Positions 11,151-48,404 of a stretch of DNA of 64,000 bases are shown piece by piece. The stretch comes from Paludibacteraceae bacterium (GTDB taxonomy: Bacteria > Bacteroidota > Bacteroidia > Bacteroidales > Paludibacteraceae). Position 1 is the first letter of the stretch. The number at the start of each line of letters is the position of its first letter. The stretch covers positions 4,694 through 68,693 of the forward strand of contig JAEEMG010000062.1 of assembly GCA_016283095.1 (NCBI GenBank), written 5' to 3'. A model generated the notes under the pieces. That model was not told the origin of the DNA, searched no databases, and was given only the letters and a program-made list of their open reading frames with translations. A program made the position numbers and the translations under genes.

Positions 11151-11201
11151 CAAAGAACAAAGACAAAGAACTAGTAAATACTTTCAAAAATTTTAGTGAA
11201 A

Positions 11202-13966: not shown

Positions 13967-15338
13967 GACTCTTGAAATAGCTAATTCTGACAAAACGTTT
14001 ATCAAGGTGATAGGCGTTGGTGGCGGTGGCGGTAATGCTGTCTCTTATATGTATAAAGCGGGAGTTGAAGGTGTTGACTTCATCCTGATGAATACAGATA
14101 AGGCGGCGTTGAAGCGTTCGTCCGTTCCTAAACGAATCCTGCTCGGCAAGAAAGGCCTTGGTGCAGGATCGGATCCTCGTATCGGTAAGGCGGCAATGCT
14201 TAGTGTGGAAGAAAATGTCAGACAGTTGCTATCTGAGGATACAGAGATGGTTTTTGTGACCGCCACATTAGGTGGTGGCACGGGTACAGGTGGAGCTCCT
14301 GTAGTCGCACGTGTGGCTAAGGAACTCGGTATCCTTACTATCGGTGTCGTCACAACTCCGTTTTCTTATGAAGGTCCGATCAGAAAGGCAATCGCTGAAG
14401 AGGGAGTGCGAGAGATGAGAAAATATGTCGATTCTCTTGTGATTATATCTAACGACAGATTGTCGTCGCAATCTAAGGATAGGAACGCATTGTCGCAATC
14501 AATGAAACTATCTTCAAGTTTTGCGGCGTCTGATTCTATTCTTGCCACTGCTGCTCAATGTATCTCCGATATGGTGACTCAGTCTGGTTACGTCAATGTG
14601 GATATGAATGATGTCCGCACCGTCATGACTGACTCTGGAGACGCGGTGATCGGATCGTCTGTGGCAGCCGGTGAATATCGTGCTATGCAGGCTATGCGTG
14701 AGGCTCTTACTTCGCCATTGCTTGTCAATAATGATATACGTAATGCCAAGAGTATTCTGGTGAACTACCTATATTCGGATAAGGAAGTCACAATTGACGA
14801 GTTGTCTGAAACGATGGAGATGGTTCAGATGAAGGTCGACGACGATGTCACTATCATTTGGGGAGCAAGTCAGGTGGAAGGCATGGGGGATAAATTGAAA
14901 ATCTCTGTTGTTGTCACAGGACAATTGTTGGCGGAGGATAAACTTGTGGGAGCGGTCTCTGATGTCTTTGTCCCTGTGAAATTTCCAGATTCTCCTAAAA
15001 AAGAAGTGGAGACAAAAAAGAAAGAGGAAGAAATACCGGTTGTTGTCACAATAGAAGACGAAGTAATAGGAGACGACGGAACTGTTGGGCAATCGGTGCC
15101 TACGCCAACTCCTACTACATTCATGCCTACAGAGGCTCACGACACAACTGTGACAAGGAAAAAATTGACACCTAAAGTGTTTGGTGATGAAGATGCAGAT
15201 GAGACTCCTGCATATACCCGTACAAAGACAGTTGTCGCGGAACGTAAGGCAGAACCGACGTCTTCTTTCACTGTCAAACTTGACGGAGAGGAGATAAAAA
15301 TGGGGGATAACAGATATCTCTCAAACAGACCAGATTAA
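13959..15338 (+). CDS. Second FtsZ-family GTPase, tandem paralogue of ftsZ
   Basis: Complete FtsZ core: GVGGGGGNA, GGGTGTG, SNDRL, NVDMNDVRTVM, VVVTG. ATG at 13959 overlaps the ftsZ stop (ATGATTGA); the track begins at TTG 13947. Own divergent C-terminal tail. Confidence 0.85.
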   Translation: MIETLEIANSDKTFIKVIGVGGGGGNAVSYMYKAGVEGVDFILMNTDKAALKRSSVPKRILLGKKGLGAGSDPRIGKAAMLSVEENVRQLLSEDTEMVFVTATLGGGTGTGGAPVVARVAKELGILTIGVVTTPFSYEGPIRKAIAEEGVREMRKYVDSLVIISNDRLSSQSKDRNALSQSMKLSSSFAASDSILATAAQCISDMVTQSGYVNVDMNDVRTVMTDSGDAVIGSSVAAGEYRAMQAMREALTSPLLVNNDIRNAKSILVNYLYSDKEVTIDELSETMEMVQMKVDDDVTIIWGASQVEGMGDKLKISVVVTGQLLAEDKLVGAVSDVFVPVKFPDSPKKEVETKKKEEEIPVVVTIEDEVIGDDGTVGQSVPTPTPTTFMPTEAHDTTVTRKKLTPKVFGDEDADETPAYTRTKTVVAERKAEPTSSFTVKLDGEEIKMGDNRYLSNRPD

Positions 15339-36161: not shown

Positions 36162-37022
36162 ATGGAAAAAGAAGAAAGAACAGAGATGCTGAATCCGTTC
36201 TGTGATGAAGGATTCAAACGGATTTTTGGAGATAAAATCCTGTTGATGGATTTTCTAAACTCATTTGTAGACGCCGGTTCTCCAATTGTGGATTTAACGT
36301 ATGAGAACAAGGAGATGGTGTCGGTGGAGAGTGATGGTCGGACAATAATCTTTGATTTGTTTTGCAAGTTGGATAATGGCAATAATGTCATAATAGAGAT
36401 GCAGAATAAAAATCAGGATTTTTTTGTAGACAGAGCGGTATTCTACCTTTCAAGAGCAATCTCAGCGCAGGGAGAAAAAGGAAGAATATGGAAATATGGG
36501 ATTAATTCAGTAATTGGAATATTCATCACTCAGTTTAGAGTGTTCGACAACGACGATGTCCTTTCTGAGATGAAACTGATTGATCCAAAGACACATAAGA
36601 TGGTTTCTGATAAGATGCATGGTTATTTTATACAGTTGCCTAAATTCAAGAAGTCAAACAACGGATGTGTGGACCATTTTGATGAGTGGATCTACAATCT
36701 GAAAAATATGGAGCGTATGGGGAATATAGAATTCAAGGATCAGGAAGTGTTTGAGAGATTATGGAATCTTTCAAACTGCTCTATGCTTTCCATAGAGGAA
36801 CGCCGCAAATACGAACGCAGCCTGAAAGCCTATCGTGATTATGTGAACCAATTGGATTTTGCAAAGGCTGAGGGAAGAGCGGAAGGTATTGCAGAGGGAA
36901 GAGCGGAAGGAAGAGCGGAAGAACGATCTTTCATGATATCAATGTTAAAGAAGAAAGGAATGAGTGATGAAGAAATCGCATATTATCTGGACATTGATAT
37001 AGAGGAAGTGAAATCTGTGTAG
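36162..37022 (+). CDS. Rpn-family recombination-promoting nuclease / putative transposase (PD-(D/E)XK)
   Basis: N-terminal FCDEGFKRIFG and IIFDLFC...VIIEMQN pattern of the Rpn/YhgA-like family. C-terminal AEGRAEGIAEGRAEGRAEE repeat typical of the family. TAtcTTTG box at 36092-36099. Confidence 0.75.
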   Translation: MEKEERTEMLNPFCDEGFKRIFGDKILLMDFLNSFVDAGSPIVDLTYENKEMVSVESDGRTIIFDLFCKLDNGNNVIIEMQNKNQDFFVDRAVFYLSRAISAQGEKGRIWKYGINSVIGIFITQFRVFDNDDVLSEMKLIDPKTHKMVSDKMHGYFIQLPKFKKSNNGCVDHFDEWIYNLKNMERMGNIEFKDQEVFERLWNLSNCSMLSIEERRKYERSLKAYRDYVNQLDFAKAEGRAEGIAEGRAEGRAEERSFMISMLKKKGMSDEEIAYYLDIDIEEVKSV

Positions 37023-37151: not shown

Positions 37152-37182
37152 TTTGTGAAAATAAAAATATAATATATTTTTG
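37152..37182 (+). promoter_or_regulatory. Bacteroidetes-type promoter (-33 TTTG, 19-nt spacer, -7 TAttTTTG) upstream of the leader RNA and seven-gene operon
   Basis: TTTG at 37152-37155 and TATTTTTG at 37175-37182. Same spacing as the promoter at 33694-33724. Confidence 0.6.
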
Positions 37183-37189
37183 TGATGTC

Positions 37190-37484
37190 TCAAGCAGAAG
37201 CCCAATGGGTGGAGTTTGGGGTAGACATATTGAAAAGCGTTTACTTGACGCTTTGTTCTTGACGTTTCAGAATCTCGCAAATTCTAAATTCCTATCAAAA
37301 GCAAAGCAACAGTAGATGTCTATGGGTGTGTTTGTATGGCACTTGGTGCACCTCGTAAAAGGGGTGTGCTAAGTATTTATATAGGCATAGCGTGGGCTTC
37401 TGCGTTGCTCGTTCTAGATAGGAAGGCAATGCGAGAGCCTTGAAACGTGGGACGAGCGATAAGCACGATTCCCACGCTTTTTTT
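37190..37484 (+). ncRNA. Candidate structured leader / riboswitch-like RNA ending in an intrinsic terminator
   Basis: Long-range 11-bp helix 37194-37204 / 37393-37403. 8-bp helix 37221-37228 / 37316-37323. Hairpin 37234-37254. 14-bp hairpin 37341-37354 / 37361-37374 with four G-U pairs (plus-strand specific). Terminator stem 37446-37452 / 37470-37476 followed by T7. No convincing ORF. Confidence 0.5.
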
Positions 37485-37553
37485 GTGTCTGGGAGGAAAA
37501 AAGGAAATTTAATATTTGAGTTCGCTATTGGGGGTTGTGGCGATGGTTTTGTT

Positions 37554-38909
37554 ATGAAGATTAATACAACGTATTTGTTAGGTGTAATGACAATAGAAAG
37601 TATGGTTTTCTGTGCATCGTGTGTTGACAATCATGCTTCGTATTGTTATGAAGATTGGAATACTAAATTAGTTGAATATCACAACTCGAAATTTTCAAAT
37701 GACGAGGAAAAGTTGAAAGAAGAGTTGGATGTTTATGTAGACTATTCAACTTGTATGAAACAAGCCAATGATGATCCTAATGGATTATTTAAACAACTTC
37801 TATTATCTCCAATACTTGGTGCTCATCCAAATTATTATTCCATAAAAGGTAACCAAATTCAGCAGGAATCTGAAGATCCTAATATTTTGTTTAGGAGTAT
37901 TGTAGAAACTCCGTATGCAGATTTGAAGGGAGCTATAGAAAAGATGGCTTCCTCAAATTGTGAATCTGTGTTGATGACAGATGGAGAATATGTATTGAAG
38001 GATACTAAGGCTAATTGGAATGAAGGGACTCCTTATATGGCGGAGGCAATGAAAAAATGGTTGCTTCGTGGTCATGACATCCATATTTTAGTTGAACCAT
38101 ATATTGAGTCATTCAAAGGCAAAAACTATAACAAAAAAAGATTTTATATCTTTTTTACAGATCGATGTCTAAAGAATAATGTTTATTCTAAAATTGCAGA
38201 TAGAATCAATAAAGATAATATGAAAATTGATTCTTATCATATTTCATGTTCTCATGTAGGCTTAAAAAAACAAAATGGTACATCTTCTGTTGCTAGTCAG
38301 ATGTTAGCGGCTAAAATCACACCAAAAGAATCATTTGAGATTCAAGAGTGGCAAGTATATTGGAAAACTATAGAGGAGTCGATGGTATATAGTAGTTTTG
38401 ATCCTATTACTGGTGCTCCTATGGAAAATAGTGCACAAGTTATATCTGGACTTAGTCTTGCTGAAGATTGTTTGCTTGGATTCAAAATTAAAGATGTGGA
38501 TATGAAAGCATACTCAATATCTGATGAATTTTCTGTGTTTGCAGATTCTTCATTATTCAAGTACATTGGAGAAGCGTTCGAGGTTAAAGATTTTGTCACA
38601 CTTGACTCAAAAGAATTAAGTCAGGGAAACATATCTGTAATGTTTGCAAATCAGAATCAATACAATCCTTTGTTTATGATTAGTTCTCCATATAATTACC
38701 TTAGATTAGACTTTTATATTGGAACTGCAGAATCAACTATAGATAGTTATAAAAATATGTTCTGCTTTGACGATATCACAAAACCAGAACAACCGAATAC
38801 ATCTGTCTACGAAAGCATCAAGCAGTGTATGGACGATGCAGATATTTTGAGTAAGGTGAATGGTGCTCATTTGTATTCAATATATGTACAGTCTCCAAAT
38901 CGTGAATAA
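37554..38909 (+). CDS. Putative lipoprotein with vWA-like domain (operon gene 1)
   Basis: Signal peptide plus lipobox (MKINTTYLLGVMTIESMVFCASC). vWA-like strand/motif order VYVDYSTCM ... ADLKGAIEKM ... VLMTDGE ... IHILVEP. ATG at 37554 lies downstream of the leader terminator. Confidence 0.55.
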   Translation: MKINTTYLLGVMTIESMVFCASCVDNHASYCYEDWNTKLVEYHNSKFSNDEEKLKEELDVYVDYSTCMKQANDDPNGLFKQLLLSPILGAHPNYYSIKGNQIQQESEDPNILFRSIVETPYADLKGAIEKMASSNCESVLMTDGEYVLKDTKANWNEGTPYMAEAMKKWLLRGHDIHILVEPYIESFKGKNYNKKRFYIFFTDRCLKNNVYSKIADRINKDNMKIDSYHISCSHVGLKKQNGTSSVASQMLAAKITPKESFEIQEWQVYWKTIEESMVYSSFDPITGAPMENSAQVISGLSLAEDCLLGFKIKDVDMKAYSISDEFSVFADSSLFKYIGEAFEVKDFVTLDSKELSQGNISVMFANQNQYNPLFMISSPYNYLRLDFYIGTAESTIDSYKNMFCFDDITKPEQPNTSVYESIKQCMDDADILSKVNGAHLYSIYVQSPNRE

Positions 38910-38938
38910 TTCAATTTTAATTAATAAACTTTAATATT

Positions 38939-39385
38939 ATGAGTAGCTTGATTTTAGGTATTAAACCATTGTTTGTCTTTTTGTGGACAGTAATCATACC
39001 TGACAAAATTTTGACATTGCAGCAATTGCAGGATGTCCAGCAGAACGAGTTTTTTTTAGCGGTTTGTTGGTCTTTAACGGCTTTGTTAATTTCATTAATA
39101 GTGTCTAATTTAATTGCTTTTCAAGGTGGAGATGATAAATCATACATAAAGAGAAGAGTTTGGCATATTATAATAGGAGTCCTATCTGTTATATATTTCT
39201 ACTATTTCTATTATTTGGAAGTTATTCCAAGAATAGCTAATCCAGGATTCCAGTCGATGTTACATAAGACAAATTTGCAGTGCTTGGGTGTCACTTCAAG
39301 TGTGTATATTGTTGTAGGTCTAATCATTATGTTGTGCTGTAGACGTTCTAAATTTGGCTCTATTTTAGGTAAAGTAAAAGATTGA
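38939..39385 (+). CDS. Small 4-TM membrane protein (operon gene 2)
   Basis: 148 aa with four hydrophobic helices. 29 nt after gene 1 and 4 nt before gene 3. Confidence 0.55.
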   Translation: MSSLILGIKPLFVFLWTVIIPDKILTLQQLQDVQQNEFFLAVCWSLTALLISLIVSNLIAFQGGDDKSYIKRRVWHIIIGVLSVIYFYYFYYLEVIPRIANPGFQSMLHKTNLQCLGVTSSVYIVVGLIIMLCCRRSKFGSILGKVKD

Positions 39386-39389
39386 TATT

Positions 39390-40982
39390 ATGGCAGATTT
39401 TTTTGTTCTAGGTATAGGTGGTACTGGAATGCGTTGTATCGAAAGTCTCATTCATTTATGTGCAATGGGAATGTTCGATGACACAACCATTCATCTTCTT
39501 GCTCTAGATACCGATAAAAATAACGGTAATTTTAAGAGACTAAAAGATCTTAAAGATGCTTATGTAAAAGCAAAAGGAGGAAAAAATCCTTTATCAAAAA
39601 CGTTTTTCTCTGCGGCTATTGAGTACTATGAATTTAGCCCAAACTATCAGAGCAATAGCAATTTTGTCGAGAGATTTGACTATACAATTACACAGCAAAA
39701 GAACAGGCATAGATCAGATCTTGCTGATTTAGTATTGACAGAAAATGTTGAGAAGTTCAATCTTGATCACGGATATAGAGCACAAACACATCTTGGATCA
39801 ATGATGATGTATCATTCCATTGTCGAGATGGCAGATAAGGATTGTGATTTGACCAAGTTCCTTGACAAATTCGCTCAAAGTGCCAAAAATGGAGCTAAAA
39901 TGTTCATTTTAGGATCAGTTTTTGGAGGAACAGGGGCGTCTTCAATTCCTATTATTCCATTAGCATTCAAGGATACAATCGCAAAGAGAAGTGGTGACGT
40001 ATCTGATATCATACAAAGTGCATATTTTGGAGCTACTCTTTTGACTGCATATATTACATTTAAGACTCCTAATGAGGACCAGTTAAGGAAGGAAAAAATT
40101 GTGGCAACAAGTGATAAGTTTGATATTAATTCTCAGATTGCTATGATGTTTTATAATGCTGATCCTACAGTTCGCAATGCATACAGCAGATTTTATATGT
40201 TGGGATGCGACTCAAAATGGGATCCAATGAGTCGCCAAGAAGGAAAGATGGCTGAAACACTAACTGGAGGAGCTTCGCAGGAGAACGATTCACATTATAT
40301 TGAACTTATGGCTGCGTGTGCTGCTTTGGATTTTTATAAAACAGATGAAGCAACATTAAAGAAAACTAATGACGGACCACAATATCTTTATAGAGCAGTA
40401 GATGAGTCTGGAAAACTTGATTTTCAAGATTTTGTTGATACAGAAGATGAGAAATCTTTTGCTCAAAGATTCGGCACGTTGATTGCTTTTTCTTTGTTCT
40501 GTAATGGAGATGATGATTTTGTGTCAAAAATCCAGGAAAAAAAGCATGTTGAAATTCAAGATTTTGGAGAAATTGACGTCAATCAAATAAAGTATCTAAA
40601 ACAGTATTTTGAATTATTTCATTGGAAAAAAACGGACAATTTGAAGGACGGTGAAGGTTGGCTTCGTCAGCTTCATCGTTCTGCAGGAGGTTCGGATAAG
40701 TTTTTGTTTAATCAGAATCTATTTTCCCCAACTACTCAAAAGGAGTTGATGGGATTAAAATGGAATAAAGAATTATATCGTTCTGAAGGACTTGGTAAAG
40801 ACAATAAATACGATTATGGTCTTGTCGGTTTGGGACTCGGAGGGTCAAAATTCGATGAGTTCAAAAAGAAATTTATTGAATACTACAAAAAAGGAGATAA
40901 AGGTCAGAGTGAGAATAAGGGAGAACAGTTATACAAACTTGTTTTTGATACTCTTGCTTCATTGTATAAATTTGAAAAATAA
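39390..40982 (+). CDS. Tubulin/FtsZ-superfamily GTPase-like protein, distant (Tubulin_2 / FtsZ-like-1 type) (operon gene 3)
   Basis: N-terminal beta-strand plus Gly loop FFVLGIGGTGMRC (T1-like, 39411-39428). Second loop ILGSVFGGTGASSIPI (tubulin signature GGTG[SA]x, 39924-39941). Intervening DHGYRAQTHLG (T3-like). About 170-residue spacing, as in FtsZ/tubulin. Confidence 0.65.
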   Translation: MADFFVLGIGGTGMRCIESLIHLCAMGMFDDTTIHLLALDTDKNNGNFKRLKDLKDAYVKAKGGKNPLSKTFFSAAIEYYEFSPNYQSNSNFVERFDYTITQQKNRHRSDLADLVLTENVEKFNLDHGYRAQTHLGSMMMYHSIVEMADKDCDLTKFLDKFAQSAKNGAKMFILGSVFGGTGASSIPIIPLAFKDTIAKRSGDVSDIIQSAYFGATLLTAYITFKTPNEDQLRKEKIVATSDKFDINSQIAMMFYNADPTVRNAYSRFYMLGCDSKWDPMSRQEGKMAETLTGGASQENDSHYIELMAACAALDFYKTDEATLKKTNDGPQYLYRAVDESGKLDFQDFVDTEDEKSFAQRFGTLIAFSLFCNGDDDFVSKIQEKKHVEIQDFGEIDVNQIKYLKQYFELFHWKKTDNLKDGEGWLRQLHRSAGGSDKFLFNQNLFSPTTQKELMGLKWNKELYRSEGLGKDNKYDYGLVGLGLGGSKFDEFKKKFIEYYKKGDKGQSENKGEQLYKLVFDTLASLYKFEK

Positions 40983-40988
40983 TAGATT

Positions 40989-43900
40989 ATGTCAACAAAA
41001 GCACTTTTGATAGGTAGCACAAGTGGAGCTGCTGCAAGCGGACAGGGCCAATGGCATGTCTATGATAAAATTACATCTTTCATCGAAGGCATCAAAGCTG
41101 GTGTTTTGAAAGAAGGTGAGACTTTGGATGTTAAGAAGGTAGAGACTCTTATCTCGGGTATGCCAACTCCATGGGCTAGAGCTAAATTGTTTGGTTTGGC
41201 TTTTAAGCCAGTCACTGATAGCAAGAACAATAATACTGTAATCACTAAGTATTACGAACAGCTAATTGAAGAATGGCGTGGATTAATTACTCTTTTAGCT
41301 CTTTATGCTGATACAGACAGAATAAAGATTTCTGAACCAGTGGAAATGGATACAAATGCAGGTGTTTATGATATTACTGCTGCATTTGGACGCATGCTTT
41401 TTGATGATCGCAGTTTATGGTGCGACCAGGATGCATTGGAGAAAGACAAAAATGCTCAGCCTTTTATTCATTTGATTTATTACAAGGGTAAATTGGTTGG
41501 AGGAACATCTCCTTATACCGGTGTGTTTACAGGAGTATGTTACGATAAACTTGATTCTACCGATATTTCAGCTTGGTACAAAGACGGTAAGTTCCAGGAT
41601 CCTACTAAGCATCTAAATTCTGATCAATTACAGAAATTGTATCTATTTGTTCTCAATCTTTCAGAAAATGTAGAGAGTTTTGTGAATAAGATTTATGGTA
41701 CAGATGGTGATACCAGAAAAGTCGCCTTAAATAACTTTATTGAACAACTAAAGATCTGGAAAAAAGAGATAGAGAATAAGGGCTCAAATCTTCAAGATAA
41801 TGGACCTATTGCTAAACTTTCAGGACTTTCAGTTCCGTTCTCGTTGTTGTTTAAAAGTGATGTTCCTGTTTGCCTAAAGACAGATGGTTCATTCTCTTTC
41901 TCATTTGAGAATGGTGCAGAAAAACTTAATGACATACAAGAAATCTTAAATGATTCTGATTGGGTATTGGGTTGGACTGAAAATAGTGATGAAATGAATA
42001 AACTTTCAGATGCTCCAGTATATTATTTGAAGGTTAATAATATTGAAGATAATTCATCTGCGTATTTTACAGTTCCTTTGTCTCAGAAGGGTATTTCCAT
42101 CTTTAGAAATTGTCTTTCTAGTGTTTTAGGATATAGCACAGAAGGAAAGTCAAAGATGGTAGGTAGAATATCGGGTGATATGTTAGCAGTCTCAATGACT
42201 ATTGAGATTGATGGAAAACAGGTTGCTCTAAACCAAAAAGAATACAAGATTGACTGGGTTTGTGGCTTGGGTAAGGTTATTGTGTGGCCAAACTTTATGT
42301 CATCTAATTGGAACAAGTATTATTTGTATTCTGAATATACTCGTGTCGCACAAGAACAGTTTGATCCTTTTTTCTTTGATTTGACAAAAAATGATAAGAT
42401 TATTAAGGATAGACATAACAATTTCTTAACAGCACGTTATGTATATGATCCATCAGAAACAAAACTTGTTGATATAAATCATTTGGTAGAGTATCCTAAT
42501 GATTGCAGTGAAGAAAAAGCAAAGTATAATATATGGAATTCCGACAAACCTTTTGGTGGGTTGATTGCATATACTTCAGAGAACGGCAAAGAAAAAAATG
42601 CTGGATATTTGATTGTACGTCATGATCAAGTAAAGGACTTGTCGAACGATGCAATAATGGATACGGCTGAGGTAGGAATAGATTTCGGAAGCAACAATAC
42701 ATGTATATACTACAAGATGTCTTCACAGAATGATCCTAAACCGATAGAGTTTAAAAATTTTAGAGCAGTTTTGGTTGGTAAAGAGAATAACAATCCTCAC
42801 TCAAATGCAAATGCAGATGAGTTATTCTTTTTCACTAATTATGTTGTGTCAAACGGACAGTTCAAGTCTTGGTTGCATGAACATGATTCTCAATATGTAA
42901 GTAATAATTCTGCTGCAGAAATTGCAGGAGGAGTTCCTGTTAATCGTCCAAATGTTCAGGTTGTGGATATGGACGAGTATGCTATTACTACTCAGGTAGG
43001 AAAGTTGAACTACAACATGAAGTGGCTTAACGATGATGCTGGATTGAACAAAAAGGGTGCATTCCTTAAATCGTTGTGGTTGCAAACTTGTGCGTTCTTG
43101 TATGTGAATAGAATAACACCAAACAAATTGTATTGGAGTTATCCAGGGGCAATGATGGAGTCGGATATCAACAATCTAGACAAAAGAATGGAGAATTTAA
43201 CTAAATCTTTGCCAATTTTAGGAGCAAAAGTGTCGTTGGAGGATCCAAATACAGAAGCAGAAGCTGTGTGTAAATATGCGTTATCCCAACCCTTTGGATT
43301 GTCTAATGATAATATTTTTCTAGGAATTGATGTAGGAGGAAGTACAAGTGACATATTGTTGATAGCTAAAGATCCTTCAAATGGAAATAAAGAGACTCTT
43401 CTAAATGAAAGTTCTGTAAGATTGGCTGCTGGCGTTTTCTTCGGAGCGGTTAAGAATTCAGATGGTTTTAGAAATTCATTGGTAAAGTATCATGAAAGTG
43501 CTATAAATAAAAATGTGTTTGTTTCAAACATTAAGGAGGTAATCTCGAATAAAGGAAAAGCACCATATTTCTTGAATTGTATTTTTGATCAATTGCAACC
43601 ATCTGATTATGATGATTTCTATGATTCTATTTCAGAAAATTCAAAGCAGATATTTGCTATCCCTGCTTATGTGACAGGATTATTGTTGTTCTACTCTGGA
43701 ATGTTGATCGGAAACGTTGTAAAAGAAAGAAATATAGATAGAGTTTCTCGTGTTAAGGTAATGGCTTTTGGAAAAGGAGGACGTTTGTTCCATTGGCTTA
43801 AAGCAATCTCTTCTAGAAGTATGAATAGATATTATCAGAATTGCTTGAATGCAGGTGCTGAAATTATTTCTGGTAAGACTTTTGAGGTCACGTATGAAGA

Positions 43901-44378
43901 CTCTATAGCAGATAGTTGTAAGACTGAGGTTGCTTTCGGATTATGTTCTAATAATAGTTTTGAATCTGTCGACAAAAGCGTTCTTAAATCAGATATTTGT
44001 GGCGAAGAAGGTGTGAAATACACTACTGAATCAAATGATGAGATTTCTCTTGAAGCTTCGTCTAATTTGGATGCCAAATATTTTGAAGAATTGAATCGTT
44101 TAGATTTCACAAGCACTGCGAATTTTGAAAGGTTTGTTTCTATATTTATAAAGTATGTGAGCGAAGAAACAGACATATATCGTAGTGCCGAAACAGATTT
44201 AAGAAGTGATGTGGTGTCTTTGAGAGACGATATCGCAAATTTTATAAAGAGAGACGATGAGTATAAAAAGGCGGAGGCAATAAAGAGAAATAATGGAGAG
44301 TTTGCGTTCCATCAACCGATTATTATTGCAGAAGGTGCCGCATTTTTAAGAAAGTTTATTGATAAAGTATTTGCATAA
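40989..44378 (+). CDS. Giant (1129 aa) actin/Hsp70-fold ATPase-like protein with unrecognised N-terminal half (operon gene 4)
   Basis: Phosphate-1 VGIDFGSNNTCIYY (42675-42701), YWSYPGAM, phosphate-2 FLGIDVGGSTSDILLI (43323-43352), adenosine-like VMAFGKGGRLFHW (43764-43796), all in canonical order. Residues 1-560 match nothing I recognise. Confidence 0.65.
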   Translation: MSTKALLIGSTSGAAASGQGQWHVYDKITSFIEGIKAGVLKEGETLDVKKVETLISGMPTPWARAKLFGLAFKPVTDSKNNNTVITKYYEQLIEEWRGLITLLALYADTDRIKISEPVEMDTNAGVYDITAAFGRMLFDDRSLWCDQDALEKDKNAQPFIHLIYYKGKLVGGTSPYTGVFTGVCYDKLDSTDISAWYKDGKFQDPTKHLNSDQLQKLYLFVLNLSENVESFVNKIYGTDGDTRKVALNNFIEQLKIWKKEIENKGSNLQDNGPIAKLSGLSVPFSLLFKSDVPVCLKTDGSFSFSFENGAEKLNDIQEILNDSDWVLGWTENSDEMNKLSDAPVYYLKVNNIEDNSSAYFTVPLSQKGISIFRNCLSSVLGYSTEGKSKMVGRISGDMLAVSMTIEIDGKQVALNQKEYKIDWVCGLGKVIVWPNFMSSNWNKYYLYSEYTRVAQEQFDPFFFDLTKNDKIIKDRHNNFLTARYVYDPSETKLVDINHLVEYPNDCSEEKAKYNIWNSDKPFGGLIAYTSENGKEKNAGYLIVRHDQVKDLSNDAIMDTAEVGIDFGSNNTCIYYKMSSQNDPKPIEFKNFRAVLVGKENNNPHSNANADELFFFTNYVVSNGQFKSWLHEHDSQYVSNNSAAEIAGGVPVNRPNVQVVDMDEYAITTQVGKLNYNMKWLNDDAGLNKKGAFLKSLWLQTCAFLYVNRITPNKLYWSYPGAMMESDINNLDKRMENLTKSLPILGAKVSLEDPNTEAEAVCKYALSQPFGLSNDNIFLGIDVGGSTSDILLIAKDPSNGNKETLLNESSVRLAAGVFFGAVKNSDGFRNSLVKYHESAINKNVFVSNIKEVISNKGKAPYFLNCIFDQLQPSDYDDFYDSISENSKQIFAIPAYVTGLLLFYSGMLIGNVVKERNIDRVSRVKVMAFGKGGRLFHWLKAISSRSMNRYYQNCLNAGAEIISGKTFEVTYEDSIADSCKTEVAFGLCSNNSFESVDKSVLKSDICGEEGVKYTTESNDEISLEASSNLDAKYFEELNRLDFTSTANFERFVSIFIKYVSEETDIYRSAETDLRSDVVSLRDDIANFIKRDDEYKKAEAIKRNNGEFAFHQPIIIAEGAAFLRKFIDKVFA

Positions 44379-44380
44379 TT

Positions 44381-46810
44381 GTGGAGTTTCTTTCTTTATA
44401 CATAGATAGGTACTATATCATTGGTAATATTGTATCCGCAGAGATTACAGACGATGGGTCATATAATCTTTGCGGTTACAAACCATTGCATTTATCTAAT
44501 TCTGAAGACCGAATTTGGTTGTATTTTTTTGAAGATGTATCTGCAGACATGATAACCTATGGGTTGTCAAATAAAATTCATTGTGATAATAAAGAGCTAC
44601 ACTATTTTGAAGGTAGTGTGTTTGACAATATAGTCAATAAATATTCACAATATAAGTTAAGAGGTGTCTCAAAAGATATGAGTTCCATATTTGAGGATTC
44701 AAAAATATTTGAAGACTTAAAGTCTGGATTCAATAATAAAAGGTATATAGAAACATACGTTTCTTATTCGAATGACATACCAGTTTCTGCTAAAAATTTG
44801 TTTAATGAACTATTAATAAAAAATGGTTTTGTATTAAAGCAGTATATCGCCAGAATCGAAGAATTGACCAAAGAAAAACTTTGTCATAAAGAGGATTATG
44901 TAATAGTTCTTTCAGCATGTGATGAAAACCTTAATATATTGTTATTCGATAGAGGTTTGACTTCAACAAAACAGTTGAAAGGGAAAGGTTTGGATTTGCG
45001 TCAAAAAGCACTTGTTAAATTAGCTGTATCCAATATTAACAAAACAGCACATGTTTTAAGGTCGCAGGATGAAATAGATGATGAGATTATAAGATTGATG
45101 CCATATTCGAAGATTTGGCTGACTAAACTGGATTCGTCATCAATGCCAATTAAACTTGATATAGCTTTTGCTGTAGATCCGAATACGATACATTCTCCTC
45201 AGTTAAAAAAAATAGACGTAGAAGGTTATACAAGAGATTTAATTAAAGAATTGTCTTCGTATATTCATGAATATGTTGCAAAGAATGACGTGGATGAACA
45301 TCAGATTCAGAGAGTTATACTTATCGGTGAAATATTCAATAATGATTCTTTTAGGCAAGAGGTCTTAAGTAAATATTCGTGTGCTTATAATTGCGTTTCG
45401 GTTTCTGATTTGCCATCTATAGTGTCTTATTATACTCAGATGGATTGTTCAAAGTATGAGACAGAAAATACAGCTTTTGTAACTAGAGCAAAAAAAGATC
45501 TAGAAGAGAAACACAAAAATCAGGAACTTCAATTAAGAAAAGAACAAATTTCTCTTCAATCAGAAAAAGAAAGAGATTTAGCTATTGCACAGGCAGAAGC
45601 AAGAAAACAATTTGATTCCTTTAAGAATAAATACCAAGAAGCGGCAAGAGAATTAAGATGGAAAGATGCTATTGATTTTGCAGAAAAGACGAAATGGGCA
45701 TTGGATAAGAAAGATTTAGAATACTCATCGAAAATTGCATATATCGATGGTGATATAGATGAGTATAGAAAAAAATTATCCGAGCAAGAGTATAAATTTG
45801 AAATTTTTAAGAAAGAAATTAAATTGGCTCGAGAATTCTTTGATAATCAAAATTGGGAAGATGCAATAAAACATGCAGATAAGGCTTTGGATGCAAATCC
45901 AGAAGCAGAGGACGCTAAAAGATACATTGTTGAATCTCGAAATAAAATAGCAGAGAAGGGTAAAATTAAGGAATATATCACAAGAGCAACGTTACTTCTT
46001 GGTCAGAAAAATTATGCAGAAGCTTTGGAGGAAGTCGAAGATGGTTTGAAACTCGAACGTGCTAATGATGAATTACTTTCCTTAAAAAACGAAATCACCT
46101 TAAAAGAAAACGATTTTAAGGTTAAGGTTGAGGAACTATCTGGAAGATTAGAGTCTGCAATTTTAAATAAAGAATTAGATTTGGCATTGAACATAATTGC
46201 TGAATTAATTGAATTTGACAATGCTCACTCTGCTAAATGGTTTGACAAAAAAAATGAGGTTAGAGAATTAATTAGAGATAAAGAACAGTTTGAAAATAAG
46301 CTAAAGGTTATAAAATCAGACATCGATTTAGCGTACAAGCTAAAACAATGGGAGAAGGTCCTGTCTTTATGTTCGAATTATTTGTCTAATAAGGATGATT
46401 CCGAAGTGGCTAAAATTAAAAGAGAATCAGAAGCAAGGATCGAAGAAATTAACCAAACTAATAAAATAGTTGACCTATTCGAAGAAATTGATTCTCTTAT
46501 TTCTGAAAAAAAGTACTCTATTGCAGAGAAAAAAGTAAAGTTCCTTCAGTCGGAGTATCCTGAGGAGAGAGAGCGATGCAAAAAAATGATTGGAAAAATA
46601 TTTGATTTAGAAGACGAAGAAGATCGTAAGATAAGAGATAAAAATAGAGGAAGTGAAGATAAATCCGATTCAGATGATTTCTTTAACGAAAAACCTAAAA
46701 AAAAGACAAAAGTTAACATAGATTGTTATGATGATGATTTCTTTAATGAGAAACCTCAAAAAAGAGTAAATGTAAATAAGAACAGTTCTGATGACGATTT
46801 TGATTTTTAA
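44381..46810 (+). CDS. Degenerate actin/Hsp70-fold domain fused to periodic TPR-like/coiled-coil repeats and an acidic-aromatic repeat tail (operon gene 5)
   Basis: GTG start 2 nt after the gene 4 stop. N-terminal approx. 350 aa has relics of the fold (LYIDRYYIIG, VIVLSACDENLNILLFD, RVILIGEIFNNDSFRQ). Six modules (WKDAIDFAEK, NWEDAIKHADKAL, NYAEALEEVEDGL, ELDLALNIIAEL, QWEKVLSLCSNYL, KYSIAEKKVKFL) recur every 53-64 aa. The tail has DDFFNEKPKKK / DDDFFNEKPQKR / DDDFDF. Confidence 0.55.
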   Translation: MEFLSLYIDRYYIIGNIVSAEITDDGSYNLCGYKPLHLSNSEDRIWLYFFEDVSADMITYGLSNKIHCDNKELHYFEGSVFDNIVNKYSQYKLRGVSKDMSSIFEDSKIFEDLKSGFNNKRYIETYVSYSNDIPVSAKNLFNELLIKNGFVLKQYIARIEELTKEKLCHKEDYVIVLSACDENLNILLFDRGLTSTKQLKGKGLDLRQKALVKLAVSNINKTAHVLRSQDEIDDEIIRLMPYSKIWLTKLDSSSMPIKLDIAFAVDPNTIHSPQLKKIDVEGYTRDLIKELSSYIHEYVAKNDVDEHQIQRVILIGEIFNNDSFRQEVLSKYSCAYNCVSVSDLPSIVSYYTQMDCSKYETENTAFVTRAKKDLEEKHKNQELQLRKEQISLQSEKERDLAIAQAEARKQFDSFKNKYQEAARELRWKDAIDFAEKTKWALDKKDLEYSSKIAYIDGDIDEYRKKLSEQEYKFEIFKKEIKLAREFFDNQNWEDAIKHADKALDANPEAEDAKRYIVESRNKIAEKGKIKEYITRATLLLGQKNYAEALEEVEDGLKLERANDELLSLKNEITLKENDFKVKVEELSGRLESAILNKELDLALNIIAELIEFDNAHSAKWFDKKNEVRELIRDKEQFENKLKVIKSDIDLAYKLKQWEKVLSLCSNYLSNKDDSEVAKIKRESEARIEEINQTNKIVDLFEEIDSLISEKKYSIAEKKVKFLQSEYPEERERCKKMIGKIFDLEDEEDRKIRDKNRGSEDKSDSDDFFNEKPKKKTKVNIDCYDDDFFNEKPQKRVNVNKNSSDDDFDF
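46673..46807 (+). repeat. 60-nt periodic coding repeat (gatgatttctttaa[c/t]ga[a/g]aaacct...) giving three DDFF/DDDF motifs at the C-terminus of gene 5
   Basis: gatgatttctttaa occurs at 46673 and 46733; a related gatgacgattttgatttt occurs at 46790. Confidence 0.8.
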
Positions 46811-46832
46811 CGAAATTTAAAAAATATTAAAT

Positions 46833-47411
46833 ATGGCAGATGTAATATTAAAAAAGAAGATCACTCTTCGCCGTAAGGGAGAGTGTGTTGAGTTCACTTT
46901 CGATGATAAGTTGAAGGTACAGTTGTTTTGGACTTCTGATACAGATCAGGACCTTTGTATTTTCTTTAAGAAGAAAGATGGAGGAATTGGTGGCGTATTC
47001 TCCAATGAGTACAGAGGTAAGAAGTCTGATCTTGGTTCATTAGACAAGTTTCCATTTATGCTTCATAGAGGAGATGAGAAAGATCCTACAGAAGGAAACG
47101 AGCAGATGGAGCAGGTAGATGTAAAAAATCTTGATGAGATTGATACTGCATATGTATGTGTTGTTAACTATGGTGCTGCTATTGAAGGAGAAGACGTTAC
47201 TTTTGCAAATGAAGGATGTCGTGTTGAATTGAAATCGAACACAGGAGATTATCTTGAAGTTATTGGTGATAGCGACAAGGATGGTTATGTGTTCTGTGTA
47301 TGTTCAATTAAAAATGAGGATGGAAAGAATTCGGTGACAAAGGTTGATGAGGTATACGATCTTTCTGATGCTTTTGATAAAATTCCAGGATTCTCTTTGA
47401 TCACAAATTAA
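46833..47411 (+). CDS. TerD-domain protein (operon gene 6)
   Basis: 192 aa, the size of classical TerD. The order VILKKKITLRRKGE / QLFWTSDTDQDLCIFF / HRGDEKDPTEGNEQMEQVDVKNLDEIDTAYVCVVNY / CRVELKSNTG / GYVFCVCSIKNEDG parallels the TerD pattern (SLSKG / GLGWD..DLDASAFLL / HTGDNRTGEGDGDDE.I.V.L / AFIRL / MLFGELYR). Confidence 0.7.
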   Translation: MADVILKKKITLRRKGECVEFTFDDKLKVQLFWTSDTDQDLCIFFKKKDGGIGGVFSNEYRGKKSDLGSLDKFPFMLHRGDEKDPTEGNEQMEQVDVKNLDEIDTAYVCVVNYGAAIEGEDVTFANEGCRVELKSNTGDYLEVIGDSDKDGYVFCVCSIKNEDGKNSVTKVDEVYDLSDAFDKIPGFSLITN

Positions 47412-47417
47412 TAAGAG

Positions 47418-48029
47418 ATGGTTCAGCTTAAGAGAAAAGTAACTCTAAAAGAGAAACATGAAGTTGCTTCTTCAGAGTCGATTCCTTCAGAAACAAGAAA
47501 TCAACAGGAATCTGAAAACAAGTCAAAGTCTTGGCTTCCATTTCTCTTATGTGGATTACTAATTGTAGGTGCAGGTATATATTTCTTGACACGTAATTCT
47601 AGTGGAAACGAGAAAACATACGCTTCAAATGATGAAAATGAGGGAAAAACAGAAATTAAAAACGAAGATTCTGTTATTCCTGTATCCGATGATCAACAAA
47701 GTCCTGTTGTAAGTACAACATCAGTTGTTGAAGATAAGGATATAATACCAAATGAGGTTGTAACTGCCGTTGAATCTAAAAAAGAGTCGTCAATGCCTGA
47801 CAATCCTATAATAGAGAATAAGGTATCTTCTTCTAAATCATCTACAGATGCTAGTAAAACAGAATCTGTAGTGAGATCAGAATCTATACCTGTTTCTGAA
47901 ATAGAGCTTACAGCTAAAGAGGTAATTCGAGGAAATTATGGAAATGGTCGCATTAGAAAAGACAAGTTAGGTGATCGATATTCTGAGATACAAAGTAAGG
48001 TAAATGAAATGTATCGTAAAGGATTGTAA
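47418..48029 (+). CDS. Single-pass membrane protein with Ser/Glu-rich linker and C-terminal CW_7 (Cpl-7-like) peptidoglycan-binding motif (operon gene 7)
   Basis: TM WLPFLLCGLLIVGAGIYFL. Low-complexity linker. C-terminus ELTAKEVIRGNYGNGRIRKDKLGDRYSEIQSKVNEMY resembles the CW_7 repeat consensus (VI.G.(Y/W)GNG..R...LG..Y..VQ..VN). Confidence 0.55.
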   Translation: MVQLKRKVTLKEKHEVASSESIPSETRNQQESENKSKSWLPFLLCGLLIVGAGIYFLTRNSSGNEKTYASNDENEGKTEIKNEDSVIPVSDDQQSPVVSTTSVVEDKDIIPNEVVTAVESKKESSMPDNPIIENKVSSSKSSTDASKTESVVRSESIPVSEIELTAKEVIRGNYGNGRIRKDKLGDRYSEIQSKVNEMYRKGL

Positions 48030-48030
48030 T

Positions 48031-48068
48031 AAACACCTTAGGCAGACAAAGTCTGCCTAAGGTGTTTT
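48031..48068 (+). terminator. Strong intrinsic terminator closing the seven-gene operon
   Basis: Perfect 17-bp stem aaacaccttaggcagac / gtctgcctaaggtgttt with a 3-nt loop, starting 2 nt after the stop, ending in TTTT. Confidence 0.85.
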
Positions 48069-48092: not shown

Positions 48093-48404
48093 TTGTGTTT
48101 TTTTTGCTTTCATCTTGTTCTACAACGGATCCTTATAAAAATTATTTTCTATAAGAAAATAATTGGCTCAAGAGTATTCAATGTGTTAGTAGAACATGAA
48201 TATCTCGCAAAAGCATTGGAAACGATAGAAAGCGAATTGACCGGAGATTGTGATGATTTCGCAACACTTATAGCGACATTTATATTGTCTATAGGAGGTG
48301 AGATTCGTGTGACAATAGCGTCTGGTCCAGATGGAGGACATGCGTATACTGAAGGACGTCGGTTTAATCGATTTCAGATTTTAAATGAAGATGGTCATAT
48401 ATGA
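48093..48404 (+). pseudogene. Transglutaminase-like cysteine peptidase core fragment (probable gene remnant)
   Basis: LTGDCDDFATLIATFILSIGGEIRV...GGHAYTE matches the Cys...His part of the transglutaminase-like core (G.C.DFA.L...L.R..GIP.R.V.G....HAW.E). Only about 100 aa, no good start, and an implausible N-terminus. Confidence 0.35.

Follow-up and report, generated by a model that had tools for sequence, protein, structure and literature searches.

Why would a bacterium that already carries the genes for FtsZ and an FtsA-like protein keep a further tubulin-like protein in an operon with Hsp70-like partners? The question is raised by seven genes (g1-g7) of a Paludibacteraceae bacterium (assembly GCA_016283095.1), found in a stretch of 64,000 nt (contig JAEEMG010000062.1, positions 4,694-68,693 of the forward strand) that is called the window below, and to which coordinates refer unless another locus is named. 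Tubulin-like and actin-fold nucleoside triphosphatases (NTPases) drive division, cell shape and DNA segregation, and an earlier sequence-only reading of the window took the seven genes for a candidate undescribed system in which both superfamilies are combined. The ORF list indeed gives seven open reading frames (ORFs) on the + strand between 37554 and 48029, with the gaps of 29, 4, 6, 2, 22 and 6 nt given in that reading, and the promoter, structured 5' leader and perfect 17-bp 3' hairpin that it placed around them are borne out by sequence and folding (Table 1); a single compact, co-directional unit is supported as well. The division genes (an ftsA-like ORF and ftsZ, at 11.2-15.3 kb) lie ~24 kb upstream of the operon, and none of the seven genes is a housekeeping paralogue, as had been claimed. 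The answer favoured here, at slightly less than even confidence, is that the locus encodes a conserved accessory, envelope-spanning machine of Bacteroidota in which g3 and g4/g5 would be the nucleotide-driven part. Direct support exists for the family and fold assignments of g3, g4 and g7, for the signals of topology, for the joint conservation of the genes and their linkage to a Ca2+ pump, and for the structure of the leader; the function is inferred.

The product of g3 is, by its family matches, loops and predicted structure, a divergent member of the tubulin/FtsZ superfamily and a predicted GTPase, nearest to Tubulin_2, in agreement with the superfamily to which it had been assigned. On its own it stays below the Pfam cut-offs, both for Tubulin (PF00091; E 0.004, 17.9 bits versus a cut-off of 33) and for Tubulin_2 (PF13809; E 0.007, 16.0 bits versus 27). 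When it is taken together with 43 distant members of its family, however, 37 of the 44 sequences match Tubulin_2 (best 6.6e-10) and 20 match Tubulin (best 1.5e-8). At 50% identity and E <= 1e-3 the family falls into 1,696 representative clusters; among the best 150 of these, proteins of full length measure about 480-585 aa. Among 26 close homologues the T1 loop GIGGTG (residues 8-13; superfamily signature GxGxxG) and the T4 loop GGTGAS (179-184; signature GGGTG(S/T)G) vary little or not at all, and in the alignment of g3 with the 43 distant members G10, G11, F178, G179, G182 and A183 are invariant, with G180 and T181 nearly so. A first sequence-profile search of the PDB with g3 gave nothing usable, and hhalign against the single E. 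coli FtsZ sequence aligned the T4 region alone; a broader g3 profile gave weak FtsZ matches in the PDB, aligned at exactly the T1 and T4 loops. Further along, a segment with the invariant residues Q297, N299, H302 and E305 (NDSHYIE) is followed by a helix in the AlphaFold2 (AF2) model. This model (predicted template-modelling score, pTM, 0.81) is a compact alpha/beta structure without a long coiled coil. Its best Foldseek matches in the PDB are FtsZ chains (probability 0.98-1.0, E 7e-3 to 0.1, target template-modelling score, TM-score, about 0.35-0.4), and in a viral structure library the best match is a phage tubulin (E 2.4e-3, 60-fold ahead of the next).

For g4, the predicted structure provides strong evidence that the C-terminal half is a Hsp70/actin-fold (ASKHA) domain with intact ATP-binding motifs, which upholds the fold proposed for it earlier. 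The AF2 model (predicted local distance difference test, pLDDT, 71) had 214 Foldseek matches in the PDB at E <= 1e-3, and the best 50 of these are all Hsp70-family or Hsp110 chains (best 3e-8, probability 1.0). Three motifs are invariant in 30 homologues, i.e. GIDFGSNNT (563-571, phosphate-1), GIDVGGSTSD (779-788, phosphate-2) and FGKGGR (927-932, adenosine), and hhalign pairs the phosphate-2 motif with DLGGGTFD of DnaK. Searches by sequence (Pfam, NCBIfam and PDB profiles) gave no match for g4, Pfam HSP70 included.

The case for g5 as a second, degenerate protein of the actin/Hsp70 fold with helical repeats, as it had been described, is moderate and indirect. Its N-terminal part (g5N) aligns collinearly with the nucleotide-binding domain of DnaK over 192 columns in hhalign, but weakly (E 1.4e-3, probability 18%), with the motif pairs SFSxDIxDxAR/VPAYFNDAQR, ATNENL/DLGGGT, GxGxDxRxRAL/HLGGEDFDxRL and LGDxF/VGGQT. 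The g5N profile also matches a protein from a distant locus (L080:14893-16284; probability 98%, E 3e-14), which in turn aligns with Pfam HSP70 in the same register as g5N, at a score under the cut-off (E 1.1e-3). The catalytic motifs of g5 are degenerate, with ATNENL in place of the phosphate-2 motif, and the N-terminus is likely a degenerate, probably inactive Hsp70-like domain. No paralogy was detectable by hhalign between g5N and either half of g4. Further downstream in g5, Pfam TPR_14 is found above its cut-off (24.5 bits). The homologues share a low-complexity, acidic C-terminus (46700-46810 in the window) with repeated DDFF and a conserved terminal DDF-x-F, and this DDFxF tail looks like a short linear motif for partner binding.

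An Hsp70-like pair could also mean that the locus is a chaperone or assembly system for a surface or periplasmic structure, in which the pair would fold or pass on a client (g1 or another envelope component) and the tubulin-like protein would position the machinery. The complete Hsp70-type nucleotide-binding site of g4 fits this, and so does g5, whose TPR-like repeats and acidic aromatic tail recall the pairing of Hsp70/co-chaperone peptides with TPR domains. A Hsp70 substrate-binding domain, a J-domain and a GrpE-like partner were however all missed by the sequence searches (the structure search reports the best domain only), and in the N-terminal half of g4 a PDB profile search detected no similarity to anything. 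The cyanobacterial versions of the locus described below, moreover, come without g1-like lipoproteins. A system devoted to folding therefore seems distinctly unlikely.

The remaining four genes face the envelope or resemble TerD. The hydropathy of g2 and g7 agrees with the four and one transmembrane segments counted before, and g7 ends in a CW_7 domain (PF08230; E 1.9e-12, 47.1 bits versus a cut-off of 25), so that the peptidoglycan-binding anchor seen by the sequence-only reading is confirmed above the Pfam threshold; it also has endolysin/amidase C-terminal matches in PHROGs. Of the earlier description of g1 as a vWA-like lipoprotein, the second half holds and the first found no support. The lipobox cysteine is invariant, but vWA was not recovered: neither Pfam on the 25 homologues nor a PDB profile search returned it, and hhalign of the N-terminal region against the integrin I-domain and TerF-type vWA domains stayed at a probability of <=4%. 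In fact, g1 had no Pfam, NCBIfam or PDB-profile match at all. It has an N-terminal alpha/beta region in which VDYSTC and LTDGEY lie 80 residues apart, possibly as vWA/MIDAS-like motifs (a MIDAS reads DxSxS), with D63-x-S65-x-C67 and T-D143-G-E145 invariant in the homologues, and a beta-rich C-terminal half. Its start is placed at ATG 37554, since the alternative TTG 37440 falls inside the conserved leader RNA.

TerD domains, with their DxDxD and GDN..GDGDDE motifs, bind Ca2+, and g6 is probably TerD-like, as had been suggested. Pfam TerD (PF02342) found no match on 19 homologues and the PDB profile search was empty too; against a profile of nine annotated TerD, TerE, TerZ and TerX genes from three plasmids, hhalign aligned residues 26-115 of g6 with a probability of 77.8% (E 1.9e-5). 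The alignment takes in the W..DxDLD and HxGD...E segments, and the invariant residues of g6 are D38, D40, G80, D81, E90 and E93. The N-termini of g6 (ADVILKKKITLRRKGE, 46833-46880) and g7 (VQLKRKVTLKEKHE, 47418-47462) share the motif (V/I)xLK+K(V/I)TL+xK, which resembles the first beta-strand of TerD (MAVSLSKGGNVSLSK) and may be a docking or strand-exchange element.

The gene set recurs well beyond this genome. A profile of g3 homologues was searched against 185,579 species-level genomes, 269 of which have a g3 relative, and the presence of the other genes was assessed in 83 loci by tblastn with the proteins of the window. Among the best 80 of the 269 genomes nearly all are Bacteroidota, with Prevotella, Segatella copri, Phocaeicola, Porphyromonas, Muribaculaceae, Barnesiella and Tannerella as well as Draconibacterium, Prolixibacteraceae and Lentimicrobiaceae; the closest relative of g3 (93% identity) is found in a metagenome-assembled genome (MAG) of 'Candidatus Scybalocola fimicaballi'. 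In the 83 loci g3 is present 83 times, g4 79, g2 73 (each time immediately 5' of g3), g1 68, g5 56, g7 48 and g6 42 times, and wherever the genes are detected, for example in Prevotella fusca, their order and strand are constant. This synteny spans Prevotellaceae, Bacteroidaceae, Muribaculaceae, Porphyromonadaceae, Tannerellaceae, Prolixibacteraceae and others, and an arrangement shared by as many as 79 of 83 related loci is not a product of chance; the co-conservation on which the earlier proposal depended is thereby found. With the closest relative (L004) excluded, identities to the homologues are 44-61% for g3, 33-53% for g4, 47-69% for g6, 24-39% for g1 and 22-34% for g5, and the conservation of g7 is mostly confined to its C-terminal domain.

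In the most distant loci, a ~500-aa protein, a ~128-aa protein, g3 and g4 are retained, whereas the remaining genes differ. After g4, one of these variants has a g5N-like protein and a Ser/Thr protein kinase (L080 14893-18090), another an AAA_35/STAND-like ATPase (L071 6223-7737) and a third a gene for HtpG (Hsp90; L083 15291-17354). The last of these is a further point in favour of a chaperone system. A small protein, a tubulin-like protein and a ~1100-aa protein also stand in a row on cyanobacterial plasmids of Gloeothece verrucosa and Picosynechococcus, where the tubulin-like proteins (~510 aa) match the g3 profile with E 1e-41 and 5e-33, and the g4 homologues match the g4 profile with E 6e-13 and 2e-11, collinear over their entire length. 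The accessory genes on these plasmids are different ones and include a prefoldin-domain and a TM2-domain protein. Since both the distant loci and the cyanobacterial plasmids keep a g2-like gene, g3 and g4, these three make up the invariant core, around which g1, g5, g6 and g7 form, as far as gene content tells, a Bacteroidales shell.

With homologues on plasmids, and with tubulin-like and actin-fold NTPases driving plasmid partition of types II and III (PMC2875224), a TubZ- or ParM-like module for DNA segregation or the maintenance of a mobile element has to be considered, the more so as the locus in the window is low in G+C. However, g3 relatives occur in just 6 of 72,556 plasmid records, one of these being a Prevotella replicon of 1.77 Mb that matches weakly (E 2e-4), and in both records given as complete chromosomes, those of Segatella copri and Prevotella fusca, the operon is chromosomal. 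Neither a DNA-binding adaptor of the TubR/ParR type nor centromere-like repeats were seen, and of the seven proteins three or four are oriented towards the membrane or the periplasm, all of which makes a role in segregation very improbable.

Downstream of the operon lies the gene for a P-type ATPase with the Pfam domains Cation_ATPase_N, E1-E2_ATPase, Hydrolase and Cation_ATPase_C, whose nearest relatives in the PDB are the plasma-membrane Ca2+ ATPases ACA8, PMCA1 and PMCA2 (E to 8e-119), with SPCA and Listeria LMCA1 next in rank. Of the 49 loci that could be assessed, 35 have it directly beside the operon on the same strand: in 32 it lies downstream, and in three, all from Porphyromonas, immediately upstream of g1. 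That its position shifts while adjacency and strand are kept favours a functional link, and the ATPase is therefore probably linked to the operon. Together with the TerD-like g6, this neighbour gives some footing to the idea that the system responds to Ca2+; the conserved PMCA-type ATPase lies outside the unit considered when that idea was first put forward.

How does the cluster relate to systems that have been described? Two predicted systems are kindred, so that 'undescribed' was too strong a word, although no named cytoskeletal, secretion or defence system matches and no published description of this gene set was found in the literature searched. Makarova and Koonin (2010, Biol Direct 5:33, PMC2875224) described operons of FtsZl1 (now Pfam Tubulin_2), for which they proposed membrane remodelling, with vWA, OmpA-like, GTPase, kinase and membrane proteins as partners, and vWA, peptidoglycan-binding and membrane partners of divergent tubulins thus have a precedent. 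As in those operons, a highly divergent tubulin/FtsZ-like protein is found alongside housekeeping FtsZ, the partner genes in the operon code for membrane proteins, for one that binds peptidoglycan and perhaps for a vWA-like one, a Ser/Thr kinase turns up in one distant locus, members of the family match Tubulin_2, and the function is known from genome context alone. FtsZl1 proteins, however, are 900-1100 aa long, with a FtsZ-like domain at the N-terminus, then a long stretch of coiled coil and, at the C-terminus, a domain of alpha-helices (PMC2875224), whereas g3 (~530 aa) has neither the coiled coil nor the C-terminal domain, and as these define that family, g3 is not a FtsZl1 protein. There is also no P-loop GTPase partner (g1-g7 are without a conserved Walker A motif and without GTPase or OmpA matches in Pfam and NCBIfam), peptidoglycan would be bound by CW_7 rather than OmpA, and the obligatory ~1130-aa Hsp70-like partner is not described in PMC2875224. 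The neighbourhood of the Bacteroides caccae example of FtsZl1 differs from the present cluster as well. Tubulin_2 proteins were still uncharacterised according to a 2023 survey.

The second kindred group is that of the DO-GTPase/GAP1-N2 systems, which Kaur, Burroughs, Iyer and Aravind (2020, eLife 9:e52696, PMC7159879) read as conflict systems. These have either a tubulin-vWA or a HSP70-GrpE theme, do not overlap in the two, and are confined to Firmicutes/Actinobacteria. Likewise, their operons have tubulin homologues, vWA proteins with transmembrane segments, HSP70-family proteins and TPR or coiled-coil proteins, and membrane-proximal, NTP-dependent switches were proposed. In the present cluster, on the other hand, tubulin and HSP70 come together, in Bacteroidota and Cyanobacteria, and FNIII-repeat proteins and variable effectors are missing. 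The defining TRAFAC-clade DO-GTPase pair is absent according to Pfam, NCBIfam and a P-loop check of g1-g7; a GAP1-like protein was not recognised in the general family searches, which held no GAP1 model.

This kinship bears on the question of whether the locus is an anti-phage or conflict system, in which an NTP-dependent switch would sense infection at the envelope and damage membrane or wall through the small transmembrane protein or the CW_7 protein. Besides the tubulin, HSP70 and vWA components placed in the predicted conflict systems, the patchy spread of g3 over so few of the species genomes would suit such a role, as would the drop in G+C (from ~0.43 to 0.32-0.37 between 36 and 50 kb of the window) with a PDDEXK_2 transposase-like gene upstream, the fast evolution of the envelope and scaffold proteins g1, g5 and g7 compared to g3, the CW_7 domain (typical of phage endolysins), and the STAND-like ATPase and Ser/Thr kinase seen in single distant loci. 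Yet the composition of the set is constant, with no swappable effectors and no recognisable nuclease, protease, NADase or pore-former, and the seven proteins have neither a conserved P-loop nor a family match that would stand in for the DO-GTPase. PADLOC-DB 2.0 has no model for the cluster, the sole match being that of g7 to PD-T4-6 at noise level (E 0.008), g3 relatives are absent from 50,697 phage records, and next to the operon in the window stand genes for lipid synthesis and the Ca2+ pump, not defence genes. A conflict system is accordingly considered somewhat unlikely.

Two well-known arrangements are comparable in part. In the FtsZ-FtsA pair, too, the gene for a tubulin-superfamily GTPase stands beside that for an actin/Hsp70-fold protein, and a cytoplasmic assembly is linked to membrane and wall, as it would be in the cluster, but here the division genes are separate, and g4 is closer to Hsp70 nucleotide-binding domains than to FtsA, and three times larger. 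Ter operons have in common with the cluster the TerD-like protein, membrane proteins and perhaps one of vWA type (the annotated ter loci compared show TerD and vWA genes linked), but relatives of TerB, TerC and TerA are absent, g6 is under the Pfam TerD threshold, and TerF/TerY stay in the cytoplasm while g1 is exported as a lipoprotein. In its general layout, in which a divergent tubulin stands with envelope partners and a protein that binds peptidoglycan, the cluster is thus like both predicted systems, but it fails the defining features of both. It is best counted among the predicted Tubulin_2/FtsZl1-centred membrane systems, as a form of its own; what is new relative to the known systems is the obligatory giant Hsp70-like partner beside the tubulin-like protein.

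Upstream of g1, the transcript would begin with a leader that is far more structured than expected by chance: the 369 nt from 37188 to 37556 fold at -139.3 kcal/mol (z = -6.6 versus shuffles). The leader DNA is 67-83% identical across genera upstream of g1, though the g1 proteins are ~35% identical, and an nhmmer profile, with which the copies were located, finds it in the window once, at 37220-37486 (E 4e-62). Leaders linked to the operon (L006, L011, L012, L016, L017, L021, L022, L026, L028, L031, L032, L035-L037, L047, L051, L052, L055 and L068) give, for 19 copies, a rod-like consensus whose 51 pairs make up nine helices, topped by an apical hairpin that varies. In this alignment 95.2% of the cells pair, compared to 81.5% in shuffles and 35-46% when the partners are slid, and 27 pairs with 146 cells are changed on both sides, which 0 of 500 shuffles equalled. 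The same was seen for 62 copies in mixed contexts (91.9% paired versus 30-49% when slid, with compensatory changes in 30 pairs and 409 cells). A terminal hairpin followed by a U run occurs in 18 of the 19 aligned leaders, at -9.5 to -17.8 kcal/mol. In the window, the 5' arm of this terminator (37446-37452) falls within the 3' strands of helices P2 and P3 (37440-37453). The bases that build it also serve, at 37446-37453, as 3' strands for helix 2 and for the foot of helix 3, so that the two pairings are mutually exclusive, which is the layout of an attenuator or riboswitch expression platform.

The leader is not private to the operon. The structure that the sequence-only reading saw is real, but roughly one operon copy in three has it, and most of its occurrences stand before unrelated genes. 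A pattern scan of metagenome contigs gave at least 120 further copies (L087-L206), and all 120 listed match the RNA profile (median 291 of 300 positions, about 193 bits), including a minority that are cut by contig ends or consist of the 3' half only. A leader specific to this operon was rejected on these grounds, as in 114 of the 115 metagenome copies whose contig runs on far enough, nothing downstream matches g1-g7. In 110 metagenomic copies, the next same-strand ORF follows at a median distance of 69 nt, and sorting these ORFs gives upwards of 25 gene families. NusG/KOW paralogues (19 of the 110 fall into one cluster), BspA-type LRR surface proteins and LytTR proteins are the most frequent, with Big_2, MBG, BACON, OmpA, DegT, GT2, a ClpB-like ATPase and a PAPS-reductase/ferredoxin protein among the others; when 57 of the downstream ORFs were scanned, with one member standing for the NusG/KOW cluster, six matched Pfam NusG. 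An exact TAnnTTTG lies within 90 nt upstream of 41% of the leader copies (background 6.8%), mostly 39-49 nt ahead of position 1 of the model, and such a Bacteroides-type promoter consensus precedes the leader of the window. A generic sigma-70 promoter scan, unsuited to Bacteroidota, did no better here than on shuffles and was uninformative. Phage genomes had no match to the leader RNA, while two Phocaeicola plasmids did, where it is unannotated. On metagenome contig ERZ1034730.143 (L115), the leader is followed by a 456-aa ORF and then by a distant relative of g3 (24% identity), and the RNA is thus joined with more than one lineage of tubulin-like operon.

The predominance of surface-protein, polysaccharide and envelope genes (BspA LRR, Big_2, BACON, OmpA, DegT, GT2) behind the same leader might be taken as another sign of a system that assembles surface structures. 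A modular leader, however, tells little about its cargo.

As for the leader itself, the copies describe a modular, widespread 5' element of Bacteroidales of ~270-340 nt that is absent from Rfam 15 (no relevant match on the leader of the window at E <= 1, nor on five other copies at E <= 0.1), and a candidate for a new class of cis-regulatory RNA. Terminator/antiterminator leaders (ON riboswitches, the targets of NusG paralogues and those of the EAR/put type) are likewise located 5' of operons, have a conserved structure and end in an intrinsic terminator whose 5' arm competes with a conserved helix. As in the leaders of NusG paralogues (UpxY ops of Bacteroides, PMC11685472, and Bacillus LoaP, PMC12691694), many of the present copies precede NusG/KOW or surface and polysaccharide operons. 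Because of these downstream genes, protein-dependent antitermination of the NusG-paralogue type is slightly favoured; an ON riboswitch is possible and a stand-alone small RNA less likely. It is probably not the UpxY ops leader itself, which Saba et al. (2024, PMC11685472) describe in their abstract as short pause hairpins: by that description, these are far smaller than a rod of some 300 nt (270-340 nt, 9-10 helices).

What, then, would the seven proteins do together? Under the reading of the locus as an envelope-spanning machine, g3 and g4/g5 would assemble, driven by nucleotides, on the inner side of the cytoplasmic membrane, by analogy with FtsZ and its actin-fold tether FtsA. Through g2 and g7 this assembly would be coupled to the wall and to the periplasm-facing lipoprotein g1, and it might remodel, repair or monitor the envelope upon Ca2+ entry or envelope stress, with g6 as the Ca2+-binding module and the neighbouring ATPase resetting cytosolic Ca2+. 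In this genome, the leader RNA would gate transcription into the operon by an attenuation switch between its basal helices and the intrinsic terminator.

A number of observations weigh against this reading. The likeness of the g3 model to FtsZ is weak (TM-score about 0.25-0.4), with Rossmann-fold dehydrogenases interleaved among the matches. A vWA identity of g1 is unsupported beyond its motifs (DxSxC...TDGE), the likeness of g6 to TerD spans half of the protein only, with the canonical Ca2+ motif GDGDDE altered, and g6 and g7 went undetected by tblastn in many loci that do have g1-g5. The leader is on about 22 of 65 operon copies and is therefore not intrinsic to the system. The ATPase, finally, is missing from 14 loci that have room for one; it is also more conserved than the operon proteins, so that its adjacency may partly be inherited synteny, and the strong hairpin between it and g7 speaks against co-transcription and suggests a separate transcript.

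A more far-reaching version combines all of these elements, i.e. an obligate pair of a tubulin-like GTPase and a Hsp70/actin-fold ATPase that would be cytoskeletal, envelope-tethered and coupled to Ca2+ (through the TerD-like sensor and the PMCA-type pump), acting as a membrane-repair or remodelling counterpart in Bacteroidales and Cyanobacteria, with a leader that would represent a new riboswitch-like or antitermination class controlling many surface and accessory operons of Bacteroidales. Taken as a whole, this version is unlikely.

The features on which the argument is built are collected in Table 1.

Table 1. Positions of the operon, its control elements, the neighbouring ATPase gene and the cyanobacterial core loci (window coordinates, except where a locus is given)
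Feature	Position	Strand	Description
Promoter consensus, Bacteroides-type	37152-37182	+	-33 TTTG 37152-37155, 19-nt spacer, -7 TAttTTTG 37175-37182 (sequence reading)
Structured leader RNA	37215-37487	+	rod-like, 9-10 helices, variable apical hairpin
Intrinsic terminator in leader	37446-37484	+	CGUGGGA ... UCCCACG and U run
g1, lipoprotein, 451 aa	37554-38909	+	signal peptide, lipobox with invariant Cys23 (25 homologues aligned)
g2, small membrane protein, 148 aa (most homologues ~128 aa)	38939-39385	+	four hydrophobic segments (hydropathy)
g3, tubulin/FtsZ-superfamily GTPase-like, Tubulin_2-related, 530 aa	39390-40982	+	
g4, 1129 aa	40989-44378	+	~1-555 no assigned fold; ~556-1129 Hsp70-like (ASKHA) nucleotide-binding domain (predicted)
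g5, 809 aa	44381-46810	+	N-terminal ~370 aa Hsp70-like?, coiled-coil/TPR, disordered acidic tail
g6, TerD-like (probable), 192 aa	46833-47411	+	
g7, bitopic membrane protein	47418-48029	+	short basic N-terminus, transmembrane segment 40-58, low-complexity linker, CW_7 166-198
3' hairpin, likely operon terminator	48031-48067	+	perfect 17-bp stem, 3-nt loop, then UUUU
PMCA-type Ca2+-transporting P-type ATPase, 1027 aa	48545-51628	+	outside the hairpin-bounded unit
Cyanobacterial core locus	L207 8505-16788		Gloeothece verrucosa plasmid NC_014503.1
Cyanobacterial core locus	L208 7214-17740		Picosynechococcus plasmid NZ_CP016476.1

The hairpin that closes the operon folds at -28.5 kcal/mol (z = -7.85 versus shuffles), and its absence from a generic terminator scan is due to there being merely four U after the stem. 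Between g7 and the ATPase gene lies a short ORF (48093-48404) with a sub-threshold match to a transglutaminase core (E 0.008), which is 81% conserved in the closest MAG (L004). The genes 5' of the operon encode a CDP-diglyceride synthase, an acyltransferase and the PDDEXK_2 transposase-like protein, the last of which (36162-37022, Pfam E 1e-46) borders the low-G+C segment upstream. In the division cluster, the ftsA-like ORF (11196-12611) is followed by two ftsZ paralogues in tandem (12614-13966 and 13947-15338) with a mutual identity of 53% over 327 residues and ~42% identity each to E. coli FtsZ; such a tandem duplication inside the division cluster is unusual. Neither tRNA genes nor Rfam families at the gathering threshold were found across the whole window.

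If the locus is indeed an envelope-spanning machine, it would be a third conserved case of the two NTPases being used jointly, and one outside division, and the repertoire of the bacterial cytoskeleton would be wider than it now appears. The cluster would offer a tractable model for the uncharacterised Tubulin_2 clade (about 1,700 clusters at 50% identity). Its hosts include Segatella copri and Phocaeicola vulgatus, which are culturable and among the most abundant bacteria of the human gut. The PMCA-type pump and the TerD-like protein would open a way into Ca2+ signalling in bacteria, a question of long standing. The leader, finally, stands before NusG paralogues and before surface and polysaccharide genes, and can therefore be put directly to the test as a new regulator of Bacteroidales surface variation.

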